A stretch of 64,000 nucleotides of DNA from Burkholderiales bacterium (lineage in GTDB: Bacteria; Pseudomonadota; Gammaproteobacteria; Burkholderiales; SG8-39), in the NCBI GenBank assembly GCA_035499735.1, contig DATJYC010000050.1:658-64657 (forward strand), read 5' to 3'. The notes under the pieces were generated by a model. The model was not told the origin of the DNA. It ran no database searches and saw only the letters and a program-made list of their open reading frames with translations. The stretch's first letter is position 1. The number at the start of each line of letters is the position of its first letter. This document shows, one piece after another, positions 42,174-59,379 of the stretch. The position numbers and the translations under genes are program-made.

Positions 42174-43813
42174 AGCAGGTGTCCAACGACCCGAGCGAGG
42201 AGCGCGTCGGCGTCCGCCGCCGGCGCGTTTCCCCGCCACGCGACGTGGTGATCGGGGCGGATGAGCGCGAGATCGCGCGCATACAGGTCCCGCGCCTCGT
42301 CGCTCGCGACGTCGACTACGGACAACGGCAGGCCGCGGCGGCGCGCCGCCGCCTCGATCGAGCCGACGTCGATCCCGGGGTCGAAGCGCAACAGCGTGAA
42401 ATCGCGGCCGAAGCGGTCGAAGATCGAGACGCCGTCCTCGAGCCACAGGTGGGGCGCGCGCGCTCCCGGCACGGCGCTCGGCGCGTACCGGTGCCAGTCG
42501 TCGGGCGGCGGCGCCGAGCCGTCGGTGACGACGATAGGGGAGCCCCCGTAGAACACTCCCAGATGGATTCCCGGGATTTCGAACTCGGTCGCGGCGTGGC
42601 GCAGGAGCCGCTCGCCGAGCGCTGCGCGGGCCGCATCGCCCGCCGCGCCCGGGTCTTCCAGCTCGGGCGCGAGCGCTATCCTCCCGATGGAATCGGCCAT
42701 CGCGCGCGCGAAGCGGGTGTTGCGCTGGGCGATCGGCCTGCGCTCGCGCTCATAGCTCGCGAGGAGCCCCGTCCCGCCCCAGCCCTGGCAGGCGGCGGCG
42801 AGCTTCCAGCCGAGGTTCGACGCATCGTCGACCGAGGTGTTGTAGCCCTGGCCGCCGGTCGGCGTGAAAAGGTGCGCCGCGTCGCCCGCGATGAAGACGC
42901 GCCCGGCGGCGAAGCGCTCCGCGACGAGCGTGAAGCCCGCGGTCCACTCCGCGATGCCCAGGATCTCGAAGGCGAACTCGCGCCCGGCCGCGCGCAGCAG
43001 CGACTCGCGCGCATAGCTCTCGGGATAAGCGCCCTCGCGCGGGAGCTGGACGTGCAGCACCCACAGCTCGCGGCCGTCGATGGCGTTCATGAGCGCGCGC
43101 TGCTCTCGGTTCATCGCCCAGTACTGCCAGGCGCGCGGCGCGCGCACGGCGTCGTAGAACGCGCTCGAGCGCACGTAAACGGCGAGCATCCTGCCGCCCA
43201 TGAAATCGCGCTCTTCGCGCGAGAGTCCCTCGTAGCCCGCGCCGAGCGCCGCGCGCACCAGGCTCCTCGGGCCGTCGCAGCCGACCGCATAGTCGGCCGT
43301 GATGCGCTCGCTTCTGCCGGTTGCGACCTCCTCGACGCTGACCCTTACGCCGCTTTCGCGCTGCTCCATGGCGACCGCGCGCCAGCCGAAGCGCACGTCC
43401 ACCGCGGGCCACCTTTCCGCGTGCTTCTTGAGGATGGCCTCGATGTACATCTGCTGCACGCGGTGCAGGGGCTCGGGCGTCGGCCAGCGCGAAGCCGCGC
43501 CTTCGCGCGCCTCGACGGCCTCGCGCCGGCTTCGACCCTTGAGGCGCGCAAGCTCGTGCCCCGTGTAGCGGGTGAAGTAGGCGATGTCCTGCGGGTAGTC
43601 CTCGGGAAGGCCGAGCGCGCGCATCTCGGCGGCGAAGCCGAGCCGCCGGTAGTGCTCCATCGTGCGCGAGGTGGTGGCGTTTGCCTTGGGGAGAGTGGGA
43701 GGGCCCGGGTCCTCCTCGAGGAGAACGCAGGGCACGCCGCGGCGGCCGAGCTCGATCGCGAGGATCAGGCCCGAGGGACCGCCTCCGACGATCGCGACGC
43801 GGGTGCGCGTCAT
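42170..43813 (-). CDS. FAD-dependent aromatic-ring monooxygenase (PHBH fold, PheA/TfdB/MhpA-like, with C-terminal thioredoxin-like domain)
   Basis: VAIVGGGPSGLILAIELGRRGV dinucleotide motif; DG..S.VR; GRVFIAGDAAHLFTPTGGQGYNT; 547 aa. Confidence 0.88.
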   Translation of the reverse strand: MTRTRVAIVGGGPSGLILAIELGRRGVPCVLLEEDPGPPTLPKANATTSRTMEHYRRLGFAAEMRALGLPEDYPQDIAYFTRYTGHELARLKGRSRREAVEAREGAASRWPTPEPLHRVQQMYIEAILKKHAERWPAVDVRFGWRAVAMEQRESGVRVSVEEVATGRSERITADYAVGCDGPRSLVRAALGAGYEGLSREERDFMGGRMLAVYVRSSAFYDAVRAPRAWQYWAMNREQRALMNAIDGRELWVLHVQLPREGAYPESYARESLLRAAGREFAFEILGIAEWTAGFTLVAERFAAGRVFIAGDAAHLFTPTGGQGYNTSVDDASNLGWKLAAACQGWGGTGLLASYERERRPIAQRNTRFARAMADSIGRIALAPELEDPGAAGDAARAALGERLLRHAATEFEIPGIHLGVFYGGSPIVVTDGSAPPPDDWHRYAPSAVPGARAPHLWLEDGVSIFDRFGRDFTLLRFDPGIDVGSIEAAARRRGLPLSVVDVASDEARDLYARDLALIRPDHHVAWRGNAPAADADALLARVVGHLL

Positions 43814-44874: not shown

Positions 44875-44875
<1 letters not shown>

Positions 44876-46119
44876 CAAACGGTCATCTCGAGGACGTATA
44901 GCCCGCCTGCGAAACGGTCGACGGTATACACGAGCCGCCGGTCGTCGACGTAGACGTCGTTCAGCTGGATCGAGCCGGCCTTCGAGAGCTTCGGCGCCGG
45001 GGGAACGTAGTAGGCGATCTCCTCGGGCCGGTAGGGGTTGCTCACGTCGAAGGCGCGCACGCCGCCGCCGAAGAAGGTGCCGACGATGATGCTCTCGGAG
45101 CGCCACGAGCCCGGCACCGGCAGGTTCTCGTGCAGGTTGTGCGCGCCGAAGCGCCCTCCGTTCTTCGCGAAGGTCGCGACGGGCGGCAGCGGGCAGGTGC
45201 TGATCGGGACGAGGTTCGTCTCCATGCGCGCGTCGACCACCCACACGAGCTTCGGCCAGTCCTTGCCGTCGGTGTAGGTGCACTCGTCGCTGACGATGAG
45301 CAGCTCGGGTCCGAATAGCGGGAGCACCGTGTGGGTGAAGCCGGTGTAGGGCGGCGAGTAATGCCAGCGCGAAACGAGCTTGGGGTGAGCCTTGTCCGCG
45401 ATGTCGAGGATGACCGCGCCGCCGGAGATGTAGCCGATGTAGGCGCGGTCGGGCCTCTGCGGAAAGACGTTGGTGTTGTGCGCGCGGTAGCCCGAGTCGA
45501 ACTTCGGGTGGCGCGCGAGCGGCGGCACCGCGTCGCCGACGCGCGTGCCGGGCAGCCACCAGCGCCCGATCTCCTCGGGCTTTGCGGGTTTGCGCACATC
45601 GACGATGCGGTAGAACTGGTCATCGGACGGATGCGTCGGCTCGAAGTCCGCCGCGCCCGAGGCCATGTGGACGTACTCGCCGTCGACGAACCACACGGCG
45701 TGCACGCCGCGCGAGTGCGGACCCGAGGCGTCGAAGTGCGAGATCAGCTTCGGCTGCTCGGGCTTCGCGATATCGAACAGGTCAAAGCCCGCGGGCTTCG
45801 TGTTCACCGCGCTCGTCTGGTAGGCGACCGCCATCACGTCGCCGACCACGTCGAGGGAATTCGAGCGCACCTTCGCATGCGGCAGCTCGGTCTGCACCAC
45901 CAGCTTCGGGTTCTTCGGGTCGGTGACGTCGACCGCGGTGAAGTTCTTGGGCGCGGATTCGTGCGCCATCCACAGGATCCGGCGGCCGTCCTTGGCGAGC
46001 TGCATGCCCATGCCCTCGCCGATCCCGCCGAAGCCCGCAAGCTCATGGTGCGACAGGAGCTTCATGTTGAGCGAGAGCGCCCGGTCGGGGCGAGCGGTTC
46101 CGGAGAGCGTGGAGGCCAT
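44875..46119 (-). CDS. LVIVD-repeat beta-propeller protein of unknown function (no signal peptide)
   Basis: At least five repeats of the h-D-h-x-(D/K/N)-P-x-x-P-(K/E)-h blade motif (FTAVDVTDPKNPKLV, FDLFDIAKPEQPKLI, YRIVDVRKPAKPEEI, VILDIADKAHPKLV, VRAFDVSNPYRPEEI). Start taken at ATG 46119; its stop overlaps the cobW-like start by 1 nt. Confidence 0.7.
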
Positions 46120-46210
46120 CTTGTGTCCTGTGGAATGGAGGGAGCGCTGCGAAGGCGTAATACTAACGCCTCGGGTACACTTTTTAGAAAACGACTCGAA
46201 GGAGGGGACC

Positions 46211-47194
46211 ATGAAGAGGCTGCTCGTCTTCGTCTTCGGATTGACCGGGGCGCTGCTCGCCGGCTCATTCGCGACTGAGGCGCTCGCTCAGGCGTATCCC
46301 AGCAAGCCGGTGAAGCTCATCGTGACTTATCCGCCCGGGGGAAGCTCGGACCTGATGGCCCGGGTGTTCGGCCAGAAGCTCGGGGAAATCTGGGGTCAGA
46401 CGGTGATCATCGAGAGCAAGCCCGGCGCGGCGGGCTCGATCGGCATGGAATACGCGGCGCGCCAGCCGAACGACGGCTACAGCTTCGTCGTCGGCAACAT
46501 CGGGCCCGCGGCGGTCAACCCTCTTCTTTCCAAGGTACCCTACGACGTCGAGCGCGACTTCGTCGCGATCTCGCTCATCGCGACCGGCCCGAACGTGCTC
46601 ATCGTCCATCCCGGCGTGCCGGCAAGGTCCCTGCGCGAGCTGACCGACTACGCGAAGTCCGCCGGCGCAGGCAAGCTCAATTACGGCACCAGCGGACCGG
46701 GCAGCATCTCGCACCTGGCCGGCGCCATGTATCTGAACCTGACGGGCGTCAAGGCCACCGAAGTGCCCTACAAGGGCGGGATCCTCGGCGTGCAGGATCT
46801 CGTCGCGGGACACATCCAGTACATCTTCTCCGATTCGCTGCCGGCGATGCAGTTCATCAAGGCGGGGCGCGCCCGCGCGCTGTGCCTGACCGGCGCCGAG
46901 CGCAGCCCGATCATGCCGGACCTGCCGCCCTGCGCGGAGGCGGTGCCGGGACTGGTGGCCGTCAACTGGTGGGGCGTGTACATGCCGGCCGGCGTGCCGA
47001 AGGCGATCACCGACAAGTTCCACGCGGACCTCGTCCGGGTGATGCGGGACGAGGAGGTGAAGCGGAAGTTCGCCGACCTCGGGGTCGAGGCCGTCTACAG
47101 CACGCCCGAGCAGTTGGTCTCGTTCATGAAGTCCGAGACGGCGAAGTACGCGAAGCTGATCAAGGACGCGGGGATCAAGGTCGAGGGCCAGTAG
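46211..47194 (+). CDS. Tripartite tricarboxylate transporter substrate-binding protein (Bug/TctC family)
   Basis: Signal peptide MKRLLVFVFGLTGALLAGSFATEALA, then PVKLIVTYPPGGSSDLMARV...ESKPGAAGSIG...YGTSGPGSISHL. GGAGG precedes ATG 46211. Confidence 0.9.
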   Translation: MKRLLVFVFGLTGALLAGSFATEALAQAYPSKPVKLIVTYPPGGSSDLMARVFGQKLGEIWGQTVIIESKPGAAGSIGMEYAARQPNDGYSFVVGNIGPAAVNPLLSKVPYDVERDFVAISLIATGPNVLIVHPGVPARSLRELTDYAKSAGAGKLNYGTSGPGSISHLAGAMYLNLTGVKATEVPYKGGILGVQDLVAGHIQYIFSDSLPAMQFIKAGRARALCLTGAERSPIMPDLPPCAEAVPGLVAVNWWGVYMPAGVPKAITDKFHADLVRVMRDEEVKRKFADLGVEAVYSTPEQLVSFMKSETAKYAKLIKDAGIKVEGQ

Positions 47195-47720
47195 GGCCGC
47201 TCTCCAGCGCCGTTCTGAGCCGCGCTACCGCCTCGGCCGATTCCGCCGCGACGCGCTCGCGCACGCCGAAGTCGTCGAGGATCGCCGCGAGCAGATTGGG
47301 CATGTGGTAGGTGAGGACGCGCGTGAAGCGCGTGCCCCCGCCCTCGGGAGCGAGCGTGTAGGTCACCGTTCCGCCGCCGCGCGAGCCGACGTTCCTGCCT
47401 TCGATCGACCAGCGCACCGGCGCCTCGCGCGCCGTCACCGTCCAGGTCACCGTGCCGCGGTTGCCCGCGACGATGAAATCCTCGACGACGCTCTCGCCCA
47501 CCGCAAGCGGGTGGTCGGTCGCGCCGCGCACCGCGAGCGACGACGGATGCCAGCGCGGCCAGTTCGCCGGCGTGGTGACGTAGTCGAAGACCTGCTGCGG
47601 GGATCGCGCGATGATGATCTTGTTCTCGATGCGCGTATCGGGCGAAAGGGGCGGGGCGAACCACAGCGCAGCCGCGATTGCGACGATCGCCGCCGCCGCG
47701 ATGGCCAGGGCTCGTTTCAT
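47175..47720 (-). CDS. SRPBCC (START/Bet v1-like, polyketide-cyclase-type) protein with N-terminal membrane anchor
   Basis: 181 aa: hydrophobic N-terminus, then IIIARSPQQVFDYVTTPANWPRWHP, typical of SRPBCC ligand-binding proteins. ATGA overlap with the upstream gene. Confidence 0.7.
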   Translation of the reverse strand: MKRALAIAAAAIVAIAAALWFAPPLSPDTRIENKIIIARSPQQVFDYVTTPANWPRWHPSSLAVRGATDHPLAVGESVVEDFIVAGNRGTVTWTVTAREAPVRWSIEGRNVGSRGGGTVTYTLAPEGGGTRFTRVLTYHMPNLLAAILDDFGVRERVAAESAEAVARLRTALESGPTGPRP

Positions 47721-48616
47721 GAGCGCCTGCGCTTCCCGCGCGGTTTGCCCGCCATCTCCTCGAGCACCTTGCACACCGCGCCGGTGTCCTGCTTTCCGAG
47801 GCCCATCGCCATGGCGGCGTTGTAGATGGGAGCGCTCGCCGCGAAGAGCGGCGTCGGGCAGTCGAGACCGCGGGCGAAGTCACCGATGATGGTCATGTCC
47901 TTCTGCCACACCTCGTTCTTCATCGTCGCCTCGGAGTAGTCGCCCTTCACCATCATCGGCCCACGCACCTGGAACATGCGCGAGCCGCCCGCGCCGCCCG
48001 CGACGACCTTCAGGATCATCGCGGGGTCGAGCCCGGCTTTCATGCCGAGCACCATCGCCTCCGCCGCGGCGACGTTGTGGATCGCGACGAGCAGGTTAGC
48101 GACGAACTTCATCTTCGAGCCGGCGCCGAAGGGCCCGACGTAGAAGGCGGCGCTGGTGAAGCCCGGCAGCACCGCTGCGATCTTCCGGTATGCCGAACGC
48201 TCGCCGCTCACGTAGATGAGGAGGTCCTTCGCGCGCGCCTGGGCGCCGGTGCCGCTCAAGGGGCAGTCGAGGAGGATCACGCCGCGCCTTGCGAGCGCGT
48301 CGCGCGCGGCTGCCTTCGCCTCGATCGGCAGGGTGCTCGTCTCCACCACTACGGTGTGGCGCTTCGCCGATCTTGCGAGCTCGGCGGCGACCTCGGCGAG
48401 GGCGCGCGCCGAAGGTAGCGACGTGACGACGATGCCGGCGCGCCTCGCAACCTCGCGCACGGACTTCACGGGGACGCCCCCGGCGCGCTTATGGGCCCGG
48501 CGCGCCCCGGGGGCCACGTCGTAGCCGACGACGCGTATTCCCGCGCGCAGGAGGTTGTACGACATCGCCGAGCCCATGATGCCGAGGCCGATCATTCCGA
48601 CGGTCTGCTGCGCCAT
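47717..48616 (-). CDS. NAD(P)-dependent beta-hydroxyacid dehydrogenase (3-hydroxyisobutyrate / tartronate-semialdehyde reductase family)
   Basis: VGMIGLGIMGSAMSYNL Rossmann motif; DCPLSGT; GAGSKMKFVANLL. Confidence 0.85.
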   Translation of the reverse strand: MAQQTVGMIGLGIMGSAMSYNLLRAGIRVVGYDVAPGARRAHKRAGGVPVKSVREVARRAGIVVTSLPSARALAEVAAELARSAKRHTVVVETSTLPIEAKAAARDALARRGVILLDCPLSGTGAQARAKDLLIYVSGERSAYRKIAAVLPGFTSAAFYVGPFGAGSKMKFVANLLVAIHNVAAAEAMVLGMKAGLDPAMILKVVAGGAGGSRMFQVRGPMMVKGDYSEATMKNEVWQKDMTIIGDFARGLDCPTPLFAASAPIYNAAMAMGLGKQDTGAVCKVLEEMAGKPRGKRRRS

Positions 48617-48642
48617 CCTCGTTTGCTCCTTCTCCATTCTAT

Positions 48643-49119
48643 CTACGCCCGGCACTTGAGCGGCAGCCAGCCCGGCGGAAGGCTGGTCCGGTTCTCGCCC
48701 TTGACGGTCATCTTGTCCGGGGGCGTCGCGAAGCCGCACACCCAGGTCACGGGCACGATGGGCGCGTCGGTGACCACGGCCGGCCGCAGCGTGAGGACCT
48801 TGCCGAGGATGGCGCGGTTCGCGTGGTTGCCGAACGTGATGTGGATGGCGCCGGCCTCGATCGCCACCGAGCTGATGTAGTTGTTGACGATCTTGTCGGC
48901 GACCGGCAATCCGGCGGCCGCGTTGTCCGACGGGAAGGTCTGCAGCAGGGCCCATTGCAGGGCGACCGGCGGCTTGGCGATGTCGGCGAGCGGCAGGGCC
49001 TCGGCGATCTGGTCGCGGATAGCCTTGTCCTGGTAGGTGGGGATCGCGAGCAGCGCCAGGATGGCGACGATCCCGACCACCACCATCAATTCGAGGAGAG
49101 TGAACCCGCGGTGTCTCAA
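48643..49119 (-). CDS. Type IV (PilA/PilE-like) pilin precursor
   Basis: Class III signal M-R-H-R-G | FTLLELMVVVGIVAILALLAIPTYQD with Glu5. C-terminal Cys...Cys loop (WVCGF...27 aa...LKCRA). The only plausible start is TTG 49119-49117, overlapping the upstream TGA (TTGA). Confidence 0.8.
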   Translation of the reverse strand: MRHRGFTLLELMVVVGIVAILALLAIPTYQDKAIRDQIAEALPLADIAKPPVALQWALLQTFPSDNAAAGLPVADKIVNNYISSVAIEAGAIHITFGNHANRAILGKVLTLRPAVVTDAPIVPVTWVCGFATPPDKMTVKGENRTSLPPGWLPLKCRA

Positions 49120-49988
49120 AAGCCGTACAGCCGCGCCGGGTTGTCGACCAGGATCTTCCTGCGGATCGCGGCGTCGGGCGCCCACACCGGCAGCTGGTTG
49201 AGCAGCCGCCCGTCGTCGATCCGGAAGAGCGGCGTCACCTGCGTCGCCGGCGCGCCGGAGGAGGAGTTCGGGTGCGGCCAGTCGCTGCCCCACACGATGC
49301 GGTCGGCGTTCGTGGCGATCAGCGCCCTGGCGAGCGGCGCGGTGTCGGGGTAGTCGGGCGCCAATTTCGATGCGCGGTAGGCGCCGGAGATCTTCACGTA
49401 GGCCTTGCCCGAGGAGACGAGCTCGACGAGGTCCTTGAATCCGGGCTGCTCGACGCCGAGGGCGCCTTGAGCGCCGCCGAAATGATCGAACACCGCAGGA
49501 ACGGGCGAAGCGAGCACGAGATCCTTGATCGAGGAGATCACCGCGAGGCTCGCGTACATCTGCACGTGCCACCTGCGCTTCTGCACGCGCTCGACCGCCG
49601 CCTCGAAGCGCTTGCGCGCGATCGAGGGGTCGTTGACGCCGCCGGTGGCGAGATTCAAGCGTATGCCGCGCACGCCCGCCTGGTGCATGGCGTCGAGCGT
49701 GGATTCCTGAGTCTTCTCGTCGATCACGGCGACCCCGCGCGCGTCCTTGCCGCGGACCTTCATCCCGTAGAGCGTGGCCGAGTTGTCCGTGCCATAGACG
49801 CTCGGCGTGACGATCACGACGCGCCGGATATGAAGAGCCTCGTGCAGCGCGGCCATTTCTTCCGGGAGCGCGGTTTCGGGCGTGTACGCGCGTCCCGGGA
49901 AGAAAGGAAAGGTCTCCGGGTCGCCGTGGATGTGAGTGTGACAATCGCAGGCGCCGGCGGGGACGTCGAAATTCACCGGCGTTCTCAT
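49116..49988 (-). CDS. Amidohydrolase_2 family metal-dependent hydrolase (LigI / lactonase-like TIM barrel)
   Basis: DCHTHIHG N-terminal metal motif, VIVTPSVYG, DHFG, GSDWPHP, the COG3618/LigI-like pattern. Start at ATG 49988. Confidence 0.8.
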   Translation of the reverse strand: MRTPVNFDVPAGACDCHTHIHGDPETFPFFPGRAYTPETALPEEMAALHEALHIRRVVIVTPSVYGTDNSATLYGMKVRGKDARGVAVIDEKTQESTLDAMHQAGVRGIRLNLATGGVNDPSIARKRFEAAVERVQKRRWHVQMYASLAVISSIKDLVLASPVPAVFDHFGGAQGALGVEQPGFKDLVELVSSGKAYVKISGAYRASKLAPDYPDTAPLARALIATNADRIVWGSDWPHPNSSSGAPATQVTPLFRIDDGRLLNQLPVWAPDAAIRRKILVDNPARLYGF

Positions 49989-50083
49989 GAGCAGACCGGG
50001 AGTGTACGCCACGTCCGTTTCGGATGCCGCTCGAAAATACGCTACCATCCCGCCCTCGGCACGCACAGGCAGGCAGAACAACA

Positions 50084-52189
50084 GTGGCACGGTTCCTGGT
50101 CGGGGTAGACATCGGCGGCACCTTCACCGACTGCGTGGTGCTCGACCGCCGGGGGCGAATCACCGCCACCAAGGCTTCCTCGACGCCGCGCGATTTTGCC
50201 GAAGGCATGCTCGCCGCCATGCGCGTCGCCGCCGAGCGCCTGGGTTTGTCCTTCGAGCAGTTCTGCCGCGAGGTCGACGTTCTTACCCACGGAACGACCG
50301 TCGGCACGAACGCGCTGATCCAGCGGAAGGGCGCGAAGGTCGGCCTCATCACCACGCGCGGGCACGAGGACGCCATCCACATCATGCGCGGCTCGCGCGG
50401 CGTTTCCTCGCGCGACATCGCCAAGGTCGTGCACTTCCCCTCGAGCCAGAAGCCTTCGCCGATCGTCCCCAAGCGGCTGATCGAGGGCGTGTCCGAGCGC
50501 GTCGACTGCTTCGGCGAGATCGTGGTGCCGCTGAACGAGGACGAGGCCGAGGCCGCGATCCGGCGCCTCGTGTCCCAGGGCGTGGAGGCGATCGCGGTCT
50601 GCTTCCTGTGGTCGTTCAAGAATCCGGCGCACGAGCGGCGCGTGAAGGCGATGATCCGCAACCTCGCGCCGCAGCTCTTCGTGTCGTGCTCGGTCGACAT
50701 CGCGCCCAAGTGGGGCGAGTACGAGCGCACCACGGCCACGGCGCTGAACGCCTACATCGGGCCGGTGATGGCGAAGTACCTCGGCAACCTCGACCGCCAG
50801 TTGAAGGCCTCGGGCTACGCCCAGCCGCTGCAGATCACGCAGTGCGGCGGGGGCTCGATCTCGGTCGATCACGCGATGGAGTCGCCTCTCCTCACGCTCG
50901 ACTCGGGTCCGGTGTCGGGCGTCACCGGGTCGCTGTACCTGGGCAAGCTGATGGGCGTGCCGAATATCATCACCACCGACATGGGCGGGACCTCGTTCGA
51001 CGTCGGCATCATCCACGGCGGGCAACCGGAATATTCGTTTGTCTCGAACGTGGTGCAGTACGAATACTTCCTGCCCAAGGTCGACATCCAGGCGATCGGC
51101 TCGGGCGGGGGCTCGCTCGCCCGCGTCGACGCCGCATCCAGGTCGCTGAGCGTAGGCCCGGAGTCCGCCGGTGCGGACCCGGGACCGGCCTGCTACGGCA
51201 AGGGCGGGACGGTCGCCACCGTCACCGATGCCGACGTGGTACTCGGTTATATCAATCCCGATAATTTCCTCGGCGGCCGCATCACGCTCGACAAGAAGAA
51301 GTCGGTCGAGACCGTGCAGCGCGTCGCGGACGGCCTCGGGCTGTCGCTCTTCCAGGCGGCGGCGGGGATCGCGCAGATCGCCGAGTTCAAGATGGCCGAC
51401 ATCATCCGCAAGATGACCGTCGAGAAGGGATTCGATCCGCGCGACTTCGTGCTCTTCGCCTTCGGCGGCGCCGGGCCGGCCCACGCCGGTGTGTTCGCCA
51501 AAGAACTCGGCGTGCAGAAGGTCGTGATCCCGCAGAAGGAGATCGCCTCGACCTGGTGCGCGTTCGGCGCGGCCTCGGCCGACATTCTGCACGTCTACGA
51601 GCAGGTCGACATCCAGACGAGCCCCTTCGATGCCGATCGCATCAACACGATGCTCGCGGGGCTCGAAGCGAAAGCGAACGCCCAGATGGACAGGGACGGC
51701 ATCGACCGATCGCGGCGGCGCTTCGCGTTTTCCCTGGACATGCGCCACCGCGGGCAGATCAACGAGGTCGAGGTGATGCTTCCCGAGAAGCGCGTGAAGG
51801 AAGCATTCTTCGTGCCGCTGCGCCGGCGATTCACCGAACGCTACGAGCAGCTCTACGGCCGCGGCTCCGCCTACGCGGACGCGCGCCTGGAGATCGTGAC
51901 GCTGCGCCTGCGGGCGACCGCGGCGACGCCGCGCCCCAGGCTCTCCGCGTCGAGGAAGCTGAGCGCGAAGATCGATGCGAAGGCGAGGCACGGAAAGCGC
52001 AGCGTATACTGGGCCGAGCCGAGGAAAAGCGTCGCGACGCCCATCTACGACGGCGCGCACCTCGTGCCCGGGAATGCGATCAAGGGGCCGGCGGTGGTCG
52101 AGACGACCGACACGACGGTGGTCGTGCACCCCGGGCGCACGCTCAAGGTCGACAAGTTCGGCAATTTCGAAATCGTGTTCGGAAAGTAA
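50084..52189 (+). CDS. Hydantoinase/oxoprolinase A-type subunit (HyuA; acetone-carboxylase beta-like, ATP-binding)
   Basis: FLVGVDIGGTFTDCVVLD, GTTVGTNALIQRKG, TTDMGGTSFDVG. Start is uncertain: GTG 50084 gives a canonical N-terminus, and ATG 50024 is the alternative. Confidence 0.88.
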   Translation: MARFLVGVDIGGTFTDCVVLDRRGRITATKASSTPRDFAEGMLAAMRVAAERLGLSFEQFCREVDVLTHGTTVGTNALIQRKGAKVGLITTRGHEDAIHIMRGSRGVSSRDIAKVVHFPSSQKPSPIVPKRLIEGVSERVDCFGEIVVPLNEDEAEAAIRRLVSQGVEAIAVCFLWSFKNPAHERRVKAMIRNLAPQLFVSCSVDIAPKWGEYERTTATALNAYIGPVMAKYLGNLDRQLKASGYAQPLQITQCGGGSISVDHAMESPLLTLDSGPVSGVTGSLYLGKLMGVPNIITTDMGGTSFDVGIIHGGQPEYSFVSNVVQYEYFLPKVDIQAIGSGGGSLARVDAASRSLSVGPESAGADPGPACYGKGGTVATVTDADVVLGYINPDNFLGGRITLDKKKSVETVQRVADGLGLSLFQAAAGIAQIAEFKMADIIRKMTVEKGFDPRDFVLFAFGGAGPAHAGVFAKELGVQKVVIPQKEIASTWCAFGAASADILHVYEQVDIQTSPFDADRINTMLAGLEAKANAQMDRDGIDRSRRRFAFSLDMRHRGQINEVEVMLPEKRVKEAFFVPLRRRFTERYEQLYGRGSAYADARLEIVTLRLRATAATPRPRLSASRKLSAKIDAKARHGKRSVYWAEPRKSVATPIYDGAHLVPGNAIKGPAVVETTDTTVVVHPGRTLKVDKFGNFEIVFGK

Positions 52190-52193
52190 GCCC

Positions 52194-54470
52194 ATGCCCA
52201 AAGTCAGCGAGATGAAGGACGCAGTCTTCGACGGCCGCAAGATGGGCTACGTGCCGCCGAAGCATCTGAACATTTCGCCGAAGCTCAAGCTGCATCGCAA
52301 GAGCGCGAAGAAGATCGACCCGATCACGTATGAAGTGATCCGCCACAGCCTGTGGCACGTGAACGAGGAGCACGGGGCCACGATCCAGCGCCTGTCCGGG
52401 TCGCCGGTCGCGATGTACGCGCTCGACTTGAATCCCTCGATCCTCACCGAGGACGGCGAGTTCATCTACTTCGGCCCGTACATGCAGTACATGTCCGGGG
52501 TCACCGACACCCAGGTGAAGTGGGCGCTCGAGTACCGCAGCGACAATCCCGGCATCCGCGACGGCGACATGTTCCTCGCCAACGACCCCTGGGTGGGCGC
52601 GGCGCACCAGCAGGACGTGATGCTGATCTGCCCGGTGTTCTGGAAGGGCGAGCTGTTCTGCTGGGTCACGAACTGCCTGCACCAGTACGACCTGGGCGGC
52701 ATCACGCCCTCGTCCTTCTGCGGCGGCGCCCGGGACGCGTTCGACGAGGGCATGTGCATCCCGCCGGTGAAGATCGTCGAGGGCAACGAGATCCGCCGCG
52801 ACATTGAGGAGCTTTATCTGCGCTCCTCGCGCAAGCCCGAGGCGGTGGCGCTCGACTTCCGCGCCCAGCTTGCCGGCAACATCACCGCCCGCGACCGGGT
52901 GCTGGCGCTCGTGCGCCGCTACGGCCCCGAGGTCGTGAAGGGCGTGATGCGGAGAATCCTCGACAACGGGGAGCAGGCGTTCCTCGCGAAGCTCAAGCGC
53001 CTGCCCGACGGAGTGTGGCGCGAGCGCACCTACGTCGAGTGCTGCCGGCCGGGCGACCGGCGCACGCACCGCGTGATGCTGACGCTGAGGAAGAAAGGCA
53101 CGAAGCTCGTGTTCGAGAACGAGGGCAGCGCGCCCCAGGACGGCGCGATGAACGCGACCTACTCCGGCTGGCGCGGCTCGATCATGGTCGCCTTGAACCA
53201 GCTCCTCTGCTGGGACCAGTACTTCTCGATCGGCGGCGCGCTGCGCCACGTCGAGTTCGACCCGACGCCGGGCACCTTCAACTGCGCCAACTTCCCCGCC
53301 TCGGTGTCGACCGCGCCGGTGCAGGCGATGGAGATCTCGCTCTACCCGGCGTACAACGTGCTCTCGAAGATGATCCACAGCGACCCCGCGATGCGCCGCG
53401 ACATCATGTGCATCGGCGGCACCAGCCAGTGGCCGGCGACCATCTTCCGCGGAACCGACCAGTGGGGCGAGCGCTACGGCTACCTTCTCGTCGATCCGAT
53501 CGGCGGGGCGATCGGCGCCTTTGCGACGGGCGACGGGATCTCGACCGGCGGGCAGTCGCGGACGCCGATCTGCAAGCTCCCGAACGTGGAGCACACCGAG
53601 CAGACCTTCCCGCTGCTCTTTCTCTACCGTAAGGAAGTGGTCGATTCGGGCGGCGCGGGCCGCAACCGCGGCGGGCTGTCCGCGGAGTCCTGCTTCATCC
53701 CGCACCACACCGACGCGATCACTCAGGACACGCTGTCCTCGGGCAACGCCATGCCGACCTCGCCCGGGATGATGGGAGGCTACCCGGGCTCGGTGAACGT
53801 CTACAAGTTCAGGCGCGCGACCGACATCTTCGAGCGCCTCGCGAAGCGCGAGATTCCCACCGACATCGCGCAGGTGAAGGGCGAGGACGTGACCCTGCAG
53901 CTGCGCCAGGAGAACTTCGTGCAGAAGCCCGAGGACGTGTACGCGGTGATCTGGTCGGCGGCCGGCGGCTTCGGCGACCCGCTCGAGCGCGATCCCGAGA
54001 AAGTGCGCGACGACGTGGTCGACCAGCGCTCGGTGTCGGCCGCGGCCGCGCGCTCCATCTACGGCGTCGTGATCGACCGCGAGCACCTCGATCCCGTCGC
54101 GACGAGGATGCTCCGCGCCGAGATGCGCGCGGCGAACGCGAAAGAGGGCGCGGCAAAGCTCTCGGGCAAGGTGGTCGCCCGCATCACCGACAACCTCGAG
54201 GTGCGCCGCGAAAGCGCCGTCCTGCGCTGCGCGTGCGCGAAATGCGCGGCCGACCTGGGGCCCGTGCGCGACAACTATAAGGACCACTGCGTCAGGCGCG
54301 AGTCCGACATCAGCGCGGCCAACCCCAACATCGGGGACTACAGGCGCTACATCGACGACCGCCCGGTGTTCCGCCAGTTCTACTGCCCGGGGTGCGGTGC
54401 GCTCGTCGAGAACGAGATCGCGCGCGCCGACGACGAGGTGCTGCGCGACATAGAGCTCGACCTGCGATGA
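52194..54470 (+). CDS. Hydantoinase B-type subunit (HyuB; acetone-carboxylase alpha-like) with a fused C-terminal AcxC (gamma)-like Cys4 zinc domain
   Basis: DPITYEVIRHSLWHVNEEHG...ANDPWVGAAHQQD is the HyuB core. The last ~100 aa (LRCACAKCAADLGPVRDNYK...FRQFYCPGCGALVENE) align by eye to the acetone carboxylase gamma-subunit motif (RCECGHDFC...NWK...REYFCPECGT). Confidence 0.85.
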   Translation: MPKVSEMKDAVFDGRKMGYVPPKHLNISPKLKLHRKSAKKIDPITYEVIRHSLWHVNEEHGATIQRLSGSPVAMYALDLNPSILTEDGEFIYFGPYMQYMSGVTDTQVKWALEYRSDNPGIRDGDMFLANDPWVGAAHQQDVMLICPVFWKGELFCWVTNCLHQYDLGGITPSSFCGGARDAFDEGMCIPPVKIVEGNEIRRDIEELYLRSSRKPEAVALDFRAQLAGNITARDRVLALVRRYGPEVVKGVMRRILDNGEQAFLAKLKRLPDGVWRERTYVECCRPGDRRTHRVMLTLRKKGTKLVFENEGSAPQDGAMNATYSGWRGSIMVALNQLLCWDQYFSIGGALRHVEFDPTPGTFNCANFPASVSTAPVQAMEISLYPAYNVLSKMIHSDPAMRRDIMCIGGTSQWPATIFRGTDQWGERYGYLLVDPIGGAIGAFATGDGISTGGQSRTPICKLPNVEHTEQTFPLLFLYRKEVVDSGGAGRNRGGLSAESCFIPHHTDAITQDTLSSGNAMPTSPGMMGGYPGSVNVYKFRRATDIFERLAKREIPTDIAQVKGEDVTLQLRQENFVQKPEDVYAVIWSAAGGFGDPLERDPEKVRDDVVDQRSVSAAAARSIYGVVIDREHLDPVATRMLRAEMRAANAKEGAAKLSGKVVARITDNLEVRRESAVLRCACAKCAADLGPVRDNYKDHCVRRESDISAANPNIGDYRRYIDDRPVFRQFYCPGCGALVENEIARADDEVLRDIELDLR

Positions 54471-56182
54471 CGGCTTCGGCGATCGCGCTCCCGCGCGCGT
54501 TCGACTGGAAGTGGATCATGATCGGCGTGTGCGTGGCCCTGACCGCGTATATCGCGGTGGTGCCGCTCGCGTTCCTCCTGTGGCAGAGCTTCTTCACGCC
54601 GCAGACCGCCGCGAAGGCGGCGCGCTTCACGCTGGACAACTACGCCCAGGCCTACGGCTCGGCCGACACGGCGAGGCTCTTCTGGACCTCGCTCCAGTTC
54701 GCGTTCGGCGCCTCGCTGTTCTCGTTCTCCCTGGGCACCGCGCTCGCCTGGATGAACGAGCGCACCAACACGCCGTTCAAGACGCTGTTCTTCGCGCTGT
54801 CGATCATCCCGCTGGTGATCCCCGGGATCCTGTTCACGGTCGCGTGGATTCTCCTCGGCAGCCCCAAGATCGGCATCCTCAACCTCGCGCTCCGGGACTG
54901 GCTGGGCCTCGAGAAGCCGCTCTTCAACGTCTACTCGATCTGGGGAATGATGTGGGTCGACGGCCTGCACTATTCGCCGATGGCCTTCCTGCTGATGACC
55001 GCGGCCTTCCGCTCGATGGACCCGTCCCTCGAGGAGTCCGCGACCATGTGCGGAGCGGGCATTCTCCAGACGGCGCGGCGCATCACGCTCAGGCTCGCCT
55101 GGCCGGCGATCCTCGCGACGCTGCTCGTTCTCTTCGTGCGCGCGATCGAGTCCTTCGAGGTGCCGGCGCTGCTCGGGCTGCCGGTCGGCATCCACGTGTT
55201 CACCTCGGCGATCTACCAGGCGGTGCAGCGCTACCCGAGCCAGATCGGCCTTGCATCGGCCTACGGGATGACGCTCCTCGTGATCACCTCGATCGGCGTG
55301 TACTTCGTGTCGCGGCTCTCGAGCCGCGGCAGCCGCTACGCGACGGTGACGGGCAAGGGCTTCCGCCCCCGCACGCTCGACCTCGGCCACTGGCGCTGGG
55401 TCTGCGCGGGCGCGTTCGTCCTGTACTTCCTGATGATCGTGGTGCTGCCCTTCGCGGTGCTGCTCTGGTCCTCGTTCCAGAAGTTCTATTCGGTACCGTC
55501 CTGGCAGGCGCTGCACAACCTCACCCTCGATCCGTACCGCTTCATCTTCAGCTATCCGAACCTGCCGGGCACGGTGTGGAACACGCTCGTGCTCTCTTTC
55601 GGCAGCGCGACGCTCATCATGCTGGTCACCTCGGTCATTTGCTGGATGGTGGTCAAGACGAAGGTCCCCGGGCGCTGGCTGCTCGACAACGTCGCCTCGC
55701 TGCCCCTGGTCTTTCCGGGCCTCGTCCTGGGGCTCTCGATCATGATCTTCTATCTCAACGTCGACGTCGGCGTCTACGGCACGATGTGGATCATGTTCAT
55801 CGCCTACGTGACGCGCTTCATGCCCTACGGGCTGCGCTACAACACCGCGTCCATGCTGCAGATCCACAAGGAGCTCGAGGAATCCGCGGCGATGAGCGGC
55901 GCGTCCTGGGGCACGACCTTCGTGCGCGTGGTCCTTCCGCTGCTCAAGCCGGGGCTGGTCGCCGGCTGGATCTACGTGATGATCGTCTCGATCCGCGAGC
56001 TCTCCAGCTCCATCCTCCTCTACAGCCCGGGCACCGAAGTGCTTTCGATCACGATCTGGGAGCTGTGGGAGAACGGCCAGTACGTCGAGCTGTCGGCGCT
56101 GGGCGTTCTCTTCATCGCGGCGCTCTTCGTCCTCGTGATGGCGGCCCAGTGGCTGGGCGGCAAGTTCGGCTTGAAGGAATAG
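54467..56182 (+). CDS. ABC transporter permease, fused two-domain type (FbpB/ThiP/PotBC-like)
   Basis: 571 aa with about 12 TM helices and two EAA-like loops (LEESATMCGAG and LEESAAMSGAS). ATGA overlap with the hyuB stop. Confidence 0.88.
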   Translation: MTASAIALPRAFDWKWIMIGVCVALTAYIAVVPLAFLLWQSFFTPQTAAKAARFTLDNYAQAYGSADTARLFWTSLQFAFGASLFSFSLGTALAWMNERTNTPFKTLFFALSIIPLVIPGILFTVAWILLGSPKIGILNLALRDWLGLEKPLFNVYSIWGMMWVDGLHYSPMAFLLMTAAFRSMDPSLEESATMCGAGILQTARRITLRLAWPAILATLLVLFVRAIESFEVPALLGLPVGIHVFTSAIYQAVQRYPSQIGLASAYGMTLLVITSIGVYFVSRLSSRGSRYATVTGKGFRPRTLDLGHWRWVCAGAFVLYFLMIVVLPFAVLLWSSFQKFYSVPSWQALHNLTLDPYRFIFSYPNLPGTVWNTLVLSFGSATLIMLVTSVICWMVVKTKVPGRWLLDNVASLPLVFPGLVLGLSIMIFYLNVDVGVYGTMWIMFIAYVTRFMPYGLRYNTASMLQIHKELEESAAMSGASWGTTFVRVVLPLLKPGLVAGWIYVMIVSIRELSSSILLYSPGTEVLSITIWELWENGQYVELSALGVLFIAALFVLVMAAQWLGGKFGLKE

Positions 56183-56186
56183 GCGC

Positions 56187-57263
56187 GTGCTCAAGGTCGA
56201 GGGCCTCAACACCGAGTATCCGAACGAGCGCGGCGAGGTCGTGCGCGCCGCGCAGGACGTGAGCTTCGAGGTGCCGCAGGGGCAGCTCTTCACGCTGCTC
56301 GGTCCCAGCGGCTGCGGGAAGACCACGACGCTGCGCTCGATCGCGGGGCTCGAGCGGCCGCGCTCGGGGGAGATCAGCGTCGGCGGCCGGGTCGTCTACT
56401 CGGGCAGCCGCAACGTCTTCGTCGCCCCCAACCGGCGCGGCTTCGGCATGGTGTTCCAGTCCTACGCCATCTGGCCGCACATGAGCGTGTTCCAGAACGC
56501 GGCCTTCCCCCTCCAGGTCGGCGCGCGGCGGCTGAGGCGCACGGAGATCCGCGACAAGGTCATGCGCGTGCTCGCCGCGGTGCAGCTCGAGGCCCTTGCC
56601 GAGCGCGAGGCGACGAAGCTCTCGGGCGGCCAGCAGCAGCGGTTGGCCCTCGCGCGCGCCCTCGCCATGGAGCCGCAGCTCCTTCTCCTCGACGAGCCGC
56701 TCTCCAACCTCGACGCAAAGCTGCGCGAGCGCATGCGCTTCGAGCTGAAGCGCCTTCAGCGCGACCTGAAGATCACGACCGTGTACGTCACCCACGACCA
56801 GAGCGAAGCGCTCGCGCTCTCGCATTCCATCGCGGTGATGAACGAGGGACGAATCGAGCAGATCGGCACGCCGCGCGACATCTACGAGAAGCCGGGCAGC
56901 CGCTTCGTCGCGGACTTCGTCGGCACGACGAACTTCATCGAAGGGGAGATGCTCGCAGGCGGGAGGGCGCGCACCGCGATCGGCGACATCGAGACCGGCG
57001 CCGGGGAGCTGCGCGAGGGCGACCGCGTGCTGCTGTCGGTGCGGCCCGAGGACGTCGACCTGTCCGAGATCCGCCCCGAGGGCGCCAACGTGTGGGAGGG
57101 GAAGGTCGACCAGAAGGTGTTCCTCGGCGAGTTCGTCGACTTCCAGGTCAGGGTCGGCGGCCGCATCCTGCTCTCGCGCCGGCATCCGTCGCTGCGCACG
57201 CCCATTGGCGGGGCGATCTTCGTAAGGCTCCATCCCGAGAAGTGCGTGGCGCTAAAGGCCTAG
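56187..57263 (+). CDS. ABC transporter ATP-binding protein (FbpC/PotA-like)
   Basis: Walker A GPSGCGKTT, signature LSGGQQQRLALARA, Walker B LLLLDEPLS, plus a C-terminal TOBE-like domain. Confidence 0.93.
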   Translation: MLKVEGLNTEYPNERGEVVRAAQDVSFEVPQGQLFTLLGPSGCGKTTTLRSIAGLERPRSGEISVGGRVVYSGSRNVFVAPNRRGFGMVFQSYAIWPHMSVFQNAAFPLQVGARRLRRTEIRDKVMRVLAAVQLEALAEREATKLSGGQQQRLALARALAMEPQLLLLDEPLSNLDAKLRERMRFELKRLQRDLKITTVYVTHDQSEALALSHSIAVMNEGRIEQIGTPRDIYEKPGSRFVADFVGTTNFIEGEMLAGGRARTAIGDIETGAGELREGDRVLLSVRPEDVDLSEIRPEGANVWEGKVDQKVFLGEFVDFQVRVGGRILLSRRHPSLRTPIGGAIFVRLHPEKCVALKA

Positions 57264-57313: not shown

Positions 57314-58354
57314 ATGAAGCCCTTTCTCGCCCTGGCGCTCCTGGCCGCCGCGATTTCCGCGCACGCCCAGGTCGAGCCGAACGCCACCGCCGCCGTCGCC
57401 CTCTACGCCGGCCCCGATCGGCTGCAGAGGCTGATCGAAGGCGCGAAGAAGGAGGGCGAGCTCAACCTGTATACCTCGGCGCAGGCCGACGACATCGGCG
57501 CCGTCGGCGCGGCGTATGAGAAGAAGTACGGGGTGCGCGTGAACATGTGGCGCTCGAGCTCGGAGAAGGTGCTGCAGCGCGCCCTCGCCGAGGCGCGCGC
57601 CAATCGGCACACCATGGACGTCGCCGAGACCAACGGTCCCGAGATGGAGTCGATGCACCGGGAGAAGATCCTCCAGCTCGTGAAGTCGCCCTATCTCGCC
57701 GACCTGATCGCGCCGGCGCTGTTCCCTCACGGCGAATGGGTCAGCACGCGCATGAACGTGTTCGTGCAGGCGTACAACACCAAGGCCGTGAGGAAGCAGG
57801 ATCTCCCGAGGTCCTGGGAGGACCTGTTCGATCCGAAATGGAAAGGCAAGCTCGGCATCGAGCAGGAGGACGCCGACTGGCTCGCGGGCATGATGGGCGA
57901 GCTGGGCGAGGCCCGCGGCACGAAGGTCTTCAGGGACATCGTCGCGAGGAACGGCATGTCGATGCGCAAGGGCCACACCCTGCTCGCGCAGCTGGTGGTG
58001 TCGGGCGAGGTGCCGCTCGCGCTCACCGTCTACAACTACAAGGCCGAGCAGCTCAAGCGCAAGGGCGCGCCGATCGACTGGTTCGCCATCGGCACGGCGA
58101 TCGCGCGGCCGAACGGCGTCGGCGTCGCGCGCGCTGCGCCTCATCCCCATGCCGCGGTGCTCTTCTACGACTTCGAGATCAGCGAGGAGGGCCAGAAGAT
58201 CCTCGCGCAGCGCGATTTCGTGCCCACGAACCGGAAGGTCGACAGCCCGCTCAACAAGCTGCCGCTCAGGTTCGTCGACCCGAGCGTCACGCTCGACCAG
58301 TACGACAAGTGGGTGAATCTCTACCAGGACATCTTCGGAGCCGGCGCGCGCTGA
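57314..58354 (+). CDS. ABC transporter periplasmic substrate-binding protein (Fe3+/polyamine-type, family 1), copy 1
   Basis: Signal peptide MKPFLALALLAAAISAHA; KKEGELNLYTS...WKGKLGIE...GEVPLALTVYNY pattern. Confidence 0.85.
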   Translation: MKPFLALALLAAAISAHAQVEPNATAAVALYAGPDRLQRLIEGAKKEGELNLYTSAQADDIGAVGAAYEKKYGVRVNMWRSSSEKVLQRALAEARANRHTMDVAETNGPEMESMHREKILQLVKSPYLADLIAPALFPHGEWVSTRMNVFVQAYNTKAVRKQDLPRSWEDLFDPKWKGKLGIEQEDADWLAGMMGELGEARGTKVFRDIVARNGMSMRKGHTLLAQLVVSGEVPLALTVYNYKAEQLKRKGAPIDWFAIGTAIARPNGVGVARAAPHPHAAVLFYDFEISEEGQKILAQRDFVPTNRKVDSPLNKLPLRFVDPSVTLDQYDKWVNLYQDIFGAGAR

Positions 58355-59379
58355 TGCTTCGCTGGATTCCGCTGCTCGCTCTCGCGTCCGCCCAATGCGC
58401 GGCGGCGCAGGCCCTCTTCGACTACGCCGGCCCCGACCGCATGGAGCGGATCGCGGCGGCGGCGAAGAAGGAAGGCACGCTCACGATCTACACCACCTTC
58501 GCCGAGAAGGACCAGCCGGCCCTGTTCGGTCCCTTCGAGGCGAAATACGGGGTGAAGGTGGTCGTGTGGCGCGCGGGAACCGACAAGGTCCTGCAGCGCA
58601 CGGTCGCCGAGGCCAGGGCGAGAAGATACAGCGTCGACGTGATCCACTTCGGCGCGCCGGAGATGGAAGCCCTGTCGCGCGAGAAGATCCTCCAGGCGGT
58701 GAATTCCCCCGTGCACAAGGACCTACATCCGGGGTCGGTGCCCGCCCATCGCGAGTGGGCGGCGACGCTGCTCTCGGTCTGGGTGCAGGCGTACAACACC
58801 AACCTCGTCCGCAGGCAGGACCTGCCGAGGACCTATGCCGACCTCCTCGACCCGCGCTGGAAGGGCAAGCTCGGCATCGAGGCGAAGAACGAGGACTGGT
58901 TCGCGTCCGTGGTCGACGTCATGGGCGGCGGCGAGAAGGGGCTGAAGTTCTTCCGCGACCTCGTGGCGGGGAACGGCCTCTCGCCGCGCACCGGGCACAC
59001 GCTCCTCAACAACATGGTGATCGCGGGCGAGGTGCCGCTCGCGCTCGACATCTACAATTACATGCCCGAGCAGGCGAGGCGCAAAGGCGCGCCGATCGGC
59101 TGGTTCGCGCTCGAGCCGGCGATCGCACGCTCGAACGCGATCGGCATCGCGCGCCGCGCCCCGCATCCGAACGCGGCGCTGCTCTTCTACGAGTACATGC
59201 TGGGCGTGGAGGGGCAGCGGATCCTCGCGAAGATGGACTACGTTCCCTCCAACACGAAGGTCGCCTCGCCCCTGACGGGAGTGAAGATCCTGCAGACCGA
59301 TCCGATCCGCACGCTCGACGAGAGCGACAAGTGGAAGGACCTTTTCGAGAAGATCGTCCTGAATCCATCGAGGAATTGA
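58354..59379 (+). CDS. ABC transporter periplasmic substrate-binding protein, copy 2 (tandem paralogue)
   Basis: Signal peptide MLRWIPLLALASAQCAAA. Collinear with copy 1 over its whole length, with roughly half the positions identical by eye. TGATG 1-nt overlap with copy 1. Confidence 0.85.
   Translation: MLRWIPLLALASAQCAAAQALFDYAGPDRMERIAAAAKKEGTLTIYTTFAEKDQPALFGPFEAKYGVKVVVWRAGTDKVLQRTVAEARARRYSVDVIHFGAPEMEALSREKILQAVNSPVHKDLHPGSVPAHREWAATLLSVWVQAYNTNLVRRQDLPRTYADLLDPRWKGKLGIEAKNEDWFASVVDVMGGGEKGLKFFRDLVAGNGLSPRTGHTLLNNMVIAGEVPLALDIYNYMPEQARRKGAPIGWFALEPAIARSNAIGIARRAPHPNAALLFYEYMLGVEGQRILAKMDYVPSNTKVASPLTGVKILQTDPIRTLDESDKWKDLFEKIVLNPSRN

Follow-up and report, generated by a model that had tools for sequence, protein, structure and literature searches.

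What kind of enzyme is built when the small zinc-binding gamma subunit of the ATP-dependent ketone carboxylases occurs as the tail of another subunit? This question is raised by a gene at positions 52194-54470 of a 64,000-nucleotide stretch of Burkholderiales DNA (contig DATJYC010000050.1, assembly GCA_035499735.1), the whole of which is called the window here. We found that this gene encodes a HyuB-like (beta) subunit with a gamma domain fused at its C-terminus, similar to AcxC of acetone carboxylase (Acx) and ApcB of acetophenone carboxylase (Apc). Together with the HyuA-like (alpha) gene directly upstream, it is likely to specify an uncharacterised two-polypeptide ATP-dependent enzyme of the ketone-carboxylase type (alpha plus beta-gamma), in which the zinc domain would be structural.

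The gene encodes a beta-gamma fusion

The open reading frame (ORF) at 52194-54470 (+) is translated into 758 amino acids (aa) plus stop, with no internal stop codon. It starts 4 nt past the stop of the HyuA gene, and its N-terminus, MPKVSEMK, is the consensus start in 54 orthologues. Pfam assigned a Hydantoinase_B core to aa 42-596 (52317-53981, +; 330 bits, 2.1e-98). Against the PDB, this core matched the beta subunit of Apc (5l9w_A, 2.8e-51), Acx (5m45_A), N-methylhydantoinase (7hk5_A) and caprolactamase (6yra_B), scoring 177 bits with 5l9w_A and 108 bits with 6yra_B. The phmmer alignment to 5l9w_A extends to aa 652, C-terminal arm included. From this alignment and those to split relatives, we placed the arm (approximately Apc-beta residues 580-646) and a variable linker of about 18 aa (aa ~646-663) at 53982-54182 (+); the orthologue consensus is variable over aa ~640-665.

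The gamma (Acetone_carb_G) zinc-ribbon domain follows at aa 664-758 (54183-54467, +), as indicated by Pfam, a PDB match, cysteine conservation and fold. PF08882 was found at aa 679-757 with 39.6 bits (7.1e-10), where the gathering score is 21 bits. When the tail alone was searched against the PDB with phmmer, it matched Apc gamma (5l9w_C) at E=1.7e-5 and Acx gamma (5m45_C) at E=0.19. An AlphaFold2 model of the full-length protein, built from a 55-sequence alignment, is confident over most of aa ~620-750; the block means of the predicted local distance difference test (pLDDT) are 85-94 for aa 621-700 and fall to 49-73 within aa 701-730. The modelled C-terminal domain is an all-beta fold. In a Foldseek search of the PDB, the gamma chains 5m45_C (1.1e-4) and 5l9w_C (1.3e-2, TM 0.55) were the only significant matches besides HyuB-like chains, and no other fold fell below E=0.1.

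An earlier reading of this DNA, made from the sequence only, had proposed a HyuB-like protein with a fused AcxC-like domain and no separate gamma gene, and had hinged on the tail matching the AcxC family. The PF08882 match, the similarity to 5l9w_C and the gamma-chain fold bear out the fusion. Likewise, no other gamma-like sequence turned up in the window when the gamma domain and seven standalone gammas were used as tblastn queries, nor does the window hold a second HyuA or HyuB. The positions reported for CACAKC (54228-54245), CPGC (54384-54395) and ATGA (54467-54470) were also exact; at the last, the TGA stop of the fusion gene does overlap the ATG of a gene for an ATP-binding cassette (ABC) permease.

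The gene directly upstream (50084-52189, +; alternative ATG at 50024) encodes the HyuA-like, ATP-binding alpha subunit of 701 aa, with the Pfam domains Hydant_A_N, Hydantoinase_A and Hydant_A_C. It scored 448 bits with 5l9w_B, 436 with 6yra_A, 433 with 7hk5_A and 365 with 5m45_B in the PDB. At aa 136-143 it carries SERVDCFG, close to the R/KERiDsxG interface motif of Apc-alpha. Among related loci with enough flanking sequence, a HyuA gene lies directly upstream of the fusion gene in 63 of 77, in line with the two-gene pair claimed earlier, and HyuA is the only constant neighbour over the 77 loci.

The beta core also retains the metal ligands of the family. D78 (52425-52427), H138 (52605-52607), D141 (52614-52616) and H163 (52680-52682), all on the forward strand, align to D65, H123, D126 and H148 of Apc-beta, which form the metal site of the family (PMC5214803; PMC8453981). 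This Asp-His-Asp-His set is invariant in 55 sequences. By these ligands, and by the adjacent genes for an ASKHA-type HyuA and a HyuB, 4 nt apart, the pair belongs to the superfamily of HyuA/HyuB-type ATP-dependent enzymes.

Distribution of the fusion

The sequence-only reading had implied that the fusion is rare. This was overstated. By precomputed annotation, PF02538 and PF08882 occur together in every one of the 120 best clusters at 90% identity, whose members are 80-89% identical to the query, and the fusion is spread over Actinobacteria, Alphaproteobacteria and Archaea. In a scan of one genome per GTDB species, relatives were found in 415 of 461 matching stretches, and our locus-level counts rest on the best 80 loci kept from these 415. 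The 80 loci are mostly full-length fusions with 72-94% identity that cover residues 1-3 to 753-758; the few contig-end fragments among them begin later yet span the beta-gamma junction to aa 758. Nearly all come from metagenome-assembled genomes of uncultured Burkholderiales/Casimicrobiaceae, and a few from Alphaproteobacteria.

An exhaustive search with the gamma domain gave 476 50%-identity clusters at E<=1e-3. Among the best 150 of these 476, at least 53 reach upstream into HyuB (fused proteins or fragments of them), about 30 are standalone proteins, complete at 93-105 aa, and the remainder are ambiguous; the fused and standalone counts are approximate because many matches are metagenomic fragments. 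One supposed gamma relative, P0268, was discarded as a spurious repeat-protein match, and the standalone gamma P0173 is known from one 527-bp contig only. Divergent full-length fusions (P0189, P0197 and P0264) pass the Pfam thresholds for both domains. Proteins with both domains are also encoded on finished plasmids of Mycobacterium branderi, Rhodococcus opacus, Niveispirillum cyanobacteriorum and the archaeon Halorientalis marina. The beta-gamma fusion is common and phylogenetically wide.

We considered whether the fusion might be an assembly artefact, with a lost stop codon or a frameshift joining hyuB and gamma, or whether the tail might be a decaying gamma remnant without function. In haloarchaea with split genes, beta and gamma are only 1 nt apart, so that one sequencing error could mimic a fusion. 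However, the 80 loci were assembled independently and are mostly fused end to end, both Pfam domains recur in all 120 best clusters, and cultured Mycobacterium, Rhodococcus, Niveispirillum and Halorientalis carry the fusion too, on plasmids with finished sequences. The invariance of the four zinc ligands and of other gamma residues argues against an artefact and a remnant alike. Both explanations are extremely improbable, and the artefact was rejected on the conservation over clusters and loci.

A separate observation concerns a Rhodococcus pseudokoreensis plasmid (locus L090, 5974-8151), which encodes a 725-aa HyuB-like protein whose C-terminal extension aligns to query aa 742. The extension stays under the PF08882 threshold and may be a degenerate or very divergent gamma domain. 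Its neighbours are genes for a CoA transferase, an enoyl-CoA hydratase, an HMG-CoA lyase and an HMG-CoA reductase.

The zinc site of the gamma domain

In the alignment to Apc gamma, C681 and C684 of the fusion protein fall on C22 and C25, and C731 and C734 fall on C75 and C78. These four residues of Apc gamma form a Cys4 site, the probable Zn site of that enzyme (Weidenweber et al., PMC5214803). Their counterparts, C681 (54234-54236), C684 (54243-54245), C731 (54384-54386) and C734 (54393-54395), all on the forward strand, are the predicted Zn ligands, as judged from this alignment and from conservation.

The four cysteines are invariant in 120 of 120 orthologue clusters, a conservation on which the earlier interpretation had depended, and are 91-98% conserved in 102 divergent 50%-cluster representatives. 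K696, R727, E741 and D752 are conserved together with them, and the motifs DNxK and F/YCPxCG are collinear between the fused gamma and Acx gamma. The site had been described as CxCxxC plus CPGC. Its four conserved cysteines stand, but the first residue of CxCxxC, C679, is variable among orthologues (L/I/A/T) and lies outside the conserved site, which is therefore CxxC...CPxC. The PF08882 match and the four cysteines point to membership in the gamma-bearing branch of the family, with gamma as a fused domain and not as a separate subunit.

Split relatives and phylogeny

The closest cultured relatives that we found are haloarchaea, with 44-48% identity to beta. Haloterrigena alkaliphila (J0X25_RS37850-60) and Haladaptatus pallidirubidus (LIX15_RS31555-45) share the gene order hyuA, hyuB (659-661 aa) and a 99-aa gene annotated 'acetone carboxylase subunit gamma'. 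The Haloterrigena beta (659 aa) is 47% identical over query aa 18-645, and query aa 664-757 are covered by its separate gamma. Its beta and gamma genes are 1 nt apart, and the layout in Haladaptatus is alike (1-2 nt over both). Since these close relatives keep beta and gamma as such near neighbours, the fusion looks like a simple joining of two neighbouring genes through the variable linker of about 18 residues.

The haloarchaeal clusters resemble the window in gene order and in their short gamma. They differ in that beta and gamma are separate and in their acyl-CoA/ketone context, whereas the window has importer and amidohydrolase genes. On the plasmids of H. alkaliphila (L085, 6950-9230) and H. 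pallidirubidus (L091, 5971-8258), the split loci adjoin acetoacetate-decarboxylase-family, acyl-CoA and 2,3-butanediol/acetoin genes.

To place the beta core, as the sequence-only reading had advised, we used a neighbour-joining tree of 17 sequences over 449 core columns, in which four sequences were reconstructed from printed alignments. CapB and N-methylhydantoinase were set apart from all gamma-bearing proteins at 99% bootstrap, and Apc and Acx grouped together at 100%. The window protein fell on the Apc/Acx side of that split, in a group with 100% support that also contains fused proteins from actinobacteria and metagenomes and split ones from haloarchaea, and split and fused forms were interleaved. 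Provisionally, the enzyme appears to belong to a large uncharacterised clade that falls with Apc and Acx, the carboxylases that bear gamma, and not with the lactamases and hydantoinases, which have none.

The interleaving also bears on the role of the gamma domain, as it suggests that split and fused forms are functionally equivalent. In Apc, gamma envelops beta, is clasped by the C-terminal arm of beta and lies far from the active sites (PMC5214803). In Acx it contacts mainly the HyuB-like subunit and also the ATP-binding subunit (PMC5543143). Because gamma in the solved Apc and Acx structures packs on the HyuB-like subunit, far from the active sites, we infer that the zinc domain would be structural here too and the fusion mechanistically neutral. 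A regulatory or catalytic gamma, acting in metal delivery, substrate gating or importer contact, with the fusion altering how the enzyme works, is improbable. Its role is not experimentally established in any family member, its contact with the ATP-binding subunit of Acx would leave room for such an activity, and the four further residues conserved alongside the cysteines are compatible with it. On the other side, Weidenweber et al. judge direct participation of gamma in Apc unlikely (PMC5214803), and the interleaved tree speaks for a neutral fusion.

Comparison with characterised systems

Apc of Aromatoleum aromaticum (PDB 5L9W; alpha, alpha', beta, gamma and epsilon) is the best solved match for the beta core, gamma and alpha, and both its Cys4 site and its Asp-His-Asp-His site align with the window proteins. 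Core identity is only ~25%. Apc has alpha' and epsilon, while the window has one HyuA only and neither of these subunits. In Apc, whose genes run in the order apcABCDE, gamma is encoded by a separate upstream gene (apcB), whereas in the window it is fused and the gene order is alpha, then beta-gamma. On NCBIfam, the fusion protein scored 203 bits with ApcD (cut-off 1500) and 143 bits with CapB (cut-off 1000), and its tail 29-35 bits with ApcB (cut-off 250), all far under the equivalog cut-offs. With these scores for ApcD and ApcB, and with alpha' and epsilon missing, Apc proper was ruled out.

Acx (AcxABC; PDB 5M45, 5SVB) is like the window in its gene order (ATPase, HyuB-like subunit, gamma) and in its single ATP-binding subunit. 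The subunit on which its gamma mainly packs is the one to which gamma is fused in the window. The differences lie in the core identity (~24%), in a gamma of 168 aa with ~50 extra N-terminal residues against ~95 aa here (the match of E=0.19 given above), and in a HyuB-like subunit of 776 aa without gamma against 758 aa with it. Acx proper was ruled out on the low core identity, the short fused gamma and the different subunit length. Acetone needs no importer.

The hydantoinase (Hyd) branch, with CapAB, N-methylhydantoinase and oxoprolinase (6YRA, 7HK5), shares the two-gene alpha/beta layout and the folds of the window proteins. The window alpha is about equally similar to CapA and to Apc-alpha. 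Members of the Hyd branch are without gamma, and their beta subunits of ~570-590 aa are without the C-terminal arm, while the window protein has both. A Hyd-type lactamase proper was ruled out by these two features and by scores under the cut-off of 1000 (CapB 143, CapA 613).

Carboxylation or hydrolysis

Carboxylase-type chemistry is favoured by the presence of gamma, by the placement of the beta core in the tree and by the ketone-type contexts of relatives with ~50% identity. On these grounds we lean towards carboxylation as the reaction. The alpha subunit would use ATP to phosphorylate the substrate carbonyl, giving an enol-phosphate, and would also activate bicarbonate, one step after the other as in Acx. 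A beta-keto acid would form as the activated intermediates react with each other at the metal site of beta. A sequential, Acx-like scheme is preferred to that of Apc because the window contains a single ATPase subunit. The fusion would fix the beta:gamma stoichiometry at 1:1. As substrate we would expect a polar or charged carbonyl compound that is imported, and not a freely diffusing ketone, as suggested by the three different uptake systems that accompany orthologues.

Alternatively, the pair could be an ATP-dependent lactamase, hydantoinase or cyclic-amide hydrolase that carries a gamma-like zinc domain. In that case an imported N-heterocycle or lactam would be phosphorylated by alpha at its amide carbonyl, and the ring so activated would be hydrolysed by beta. 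We regard this as a real but lesser possibility. Several observations agree with it and weigh against the carboxylase. On NCBIfam, alpha scores higher with CapA (613 bits, cut-off 1000) than with ApcC (488 bits), both under their cut-offs, and its length of 701 aa is Hyd-like. The operon is tied to importers of polar solutes. No CoA ligase, CoA transferase or thiolase gene to act on a beta-keto acid was found in the window or in the closest orthologue loci. Their flanks carry genes for Amidohydro_2 proteins, PuuE-like deacetylases, CoxLMS-like Mo-hydroxylases and flavin monooxygenases, typical of heterocycle catabolism.

Other points against the carboxylase reading concern the evidence itself. 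According to Weidenweber et al. (PMC5214803), no sequence signature separates carboxylases from hydrolases, and the sequence-only reading had rightly stated that the letters reveal neither substrate nor reaction. The tree is small, with 69% support for the fused-plus-split clade, and is provisional because of its sampling and its four rebuilt sequences. The full-length AlphaFold2 model is poor (mean pLDDT 50, pTM 0.36) and usable only over aa ~540-750. Because of this, the TM-scores of the HyuB chains that Foldseek returns for the core are meaningless.

Against hydrolysis, all Hyd complexes are reported to be without gamma (PMC5214803). The beta core has better scores with ApcD than with CapB and with 5l9w_A than with 6yra_B, CapB and N-methylhydantoinase split off from all gamma-bearing proteins, and the relatives with ~50% identity occur in ketone/acyl-CoA contexts. 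For these reasons the ketone-carboxylase-type enzyme with a structural zinc domain remains our preferred reading.

The contexts of these distant fused and split relatives include genes for CoA ligases and transferases, short-chain dehydrogenases/reductases, enoyl-CoA hydratases, an acetoacetate-decarboxylase-like protein, a butanediol dehydrogenase, a B12 mutase with a sigma54 activator and a 2,4'-dihydroxyacetophenone-dioxygenase-like protein. Two of them may be described separately. The divergent fused protein P0197 (759 aa; L083, 5891-17385, and L084, from a metagenome and GCA_021786555.1) is encoded in a cluster with a methylmalonyl-CoA-mutase-like large subunit, a B12-binding subunit, a CoA ligase, a short-chain dehydrogenase/reductase, two MaoC dehydratases and a sigma54 activator. 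This gene set resembles a route from a ketone to an acyl-CoA in which the carbon skeleton is rearranged. On the Mycobacterium branderi plasmid pJCM12687 (L086, 3563-11409), hyuA comes after the fused gene and not, as is usual, before it. The two genes lie amid five cytochrome P450 genes and a 2,4'-dihydroxyacetophenone-dioxygenase-family gene, a context that suggests aromatic-ketone metabolism.

Genomic neighbourhood

Downstream of the fusion gene, the operon continues with genes for an ABC importer. These encode a fused two-domain permease (54467-56182, +; two BPD_transp_1 stretches in Pfam, supported by the junction sequence), an ATPase with a TOBE_2 domain (56187-57263, +) and a periplasmic solute-binding protein (SBP1; 57314-58354, +; SBP_bac_6/8). 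A tandem paralogue with a signal peptide follows (SBP2; 58354-59379, +), recognised from the Pfam SBP families and tblastn, and then a major facilitator superfamily transporter. SBP1 shows a weak NCBIfam likeness to 2-aminoethylphosphonate binding proteins (PhnS, 56 bits against a cut-off of 393).

The ATG of SBP2 overlaps the SBP1 stop (TGATG), and the longest start in frame gives a 610-aa ORF (57547-59379) that hides SBP2. The second SBP of the related locus L006 matched the window by tblastn with 80% identity at 58417-59376 and with 51% identity to SBP1. Judged through this homologue, the two paralogues are ~51% identical.

The sequence-only reading had called the importer dedicated to the enzyme pair. 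This applies to the ~15 closest loci, where an importer of the window type follows the fusion gene; other orthologues adjoin LivJ-type or TctC-type uptake genes. In 28 loci, a PuuE-allantoinase-like deacetylase gene (Polysacc_deac_1) lies directly downstream of the fused gene, and other Amidohydro_2 genes, CoxLMS-like Mo-hydroxylases and flavin monooxygenases also flank orthologues. In 11 other orthologous loci (among them L013, L033, L038, L039, L044, L047, L049 and L051), a gene for a 108-aa NIPSNAP protein comes right after the fused gene; it is absent from the window.

Upstream, the genes are divergent. An Amidohydro_2 protein, lactone-hydrolase-like, is encoded at 49116-50090 (-), with a true start probably downstream of 50090 (PF04909, 170 bits; top NCBIfam match 4-sulfomuconolactone hydrolase, 186 bits against a cut-off of 500). 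A beta-hydroxyacid dehydrogenase (47717-48955, -; NAD_binding_2 and NAD_binding_11) resembles HIBADH, tartronate-semialdehyde reductase and L-threonate dehydrogenase, the last with 192 bits against a cut-off of 350 on NCBIfam. Such a dehydrogenase occurs near the pair in 22 loci and is the most recurrent enzymatic neighbour common to the window and related loci. The divergent upstream genes also encode an SRPBCC protein, a TctC receptor, an LVIVD protein, an FAD aromatic-ring hydroxylase and a thiamine diphosphate (ThDP) enzyme. We tried to derive the substrate from the neighbours and abandoned this, as the matches to 4-sulfomuconolactone hydrolase, L-threonate dehydrogenase, PhnS and PuuE are all far under their cut-offs and form no coherent pathway.

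Further upstream, the ThDP enzyme (TPP_enzyme_N/M/C) and the ring hydroxylase (FAD_binding_3, Rng_hyd_C) lie at 40383-43813 (-). A related ThDP enzyme is found near the fused gene in the window-type loci L008, L011, L014, L016, L029, L034 and L036, which hints at an aromatic or heteroaromatic catabolic island. The LVIVD-repeat protein (44875-46212, -) and the TctC-family receptor (45923-47194, +) are divergently encoded with overlapping maximal ORFs, and this pair is kept upstream of the cluster in several window-type loci (L006, L007, L011 and L036).

Significance for the family

The 2017 family survey lists separate gamma genes only (PMC5214803). Our full-text literature searches found no paper in which the beta-gamma fusion is described or any member of this clade is characterised; a 2026 preprint that deals with Arctic acxB leaves fusions aside. 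The surprise is limited, since this is an ordinary fusion of neighbouring genes that is widespread and already recorded by domain databases.

A bolder reading is that the clade forms a third branch of biotin-independent ATP-dependent carboxylases: a minimal, two-polypeptide form that in this Burkholderiales lineage would act on a polar or charged carbonyl compound taken up by the cell, perhaps a catabolite of aromatic or heterocyclic nature, and not on a volatile ketone. We put this forward tentatively and consider it rather unlikely. If true, it would extend biotin-independent ATP-dependent carboxylation to a new substrate class.

The clade is large, with 415 stretches for this orthologue group alone and further divergent fused lineages in Actinobacteria, Alphaproteobacteria and Archaea. 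Automated labels such as 'N-methylhydantoinase B' or 'hydantoinase B/oxoprolinase family protein' probably misstate its chemistry. Among gamma-containing family members, only Acx and Apc have been characterised, and both are multi-subunit enzymes. A naturally fused two-polypeptide version would be easier to express and could help to test the role of the zinc subunit, while the split haloarchaeal loci offer good models for the clade in cultured organisms. The fused enzyme may be of use as a simpler model, and the finding draws attention to a large clade with misleading annotation.

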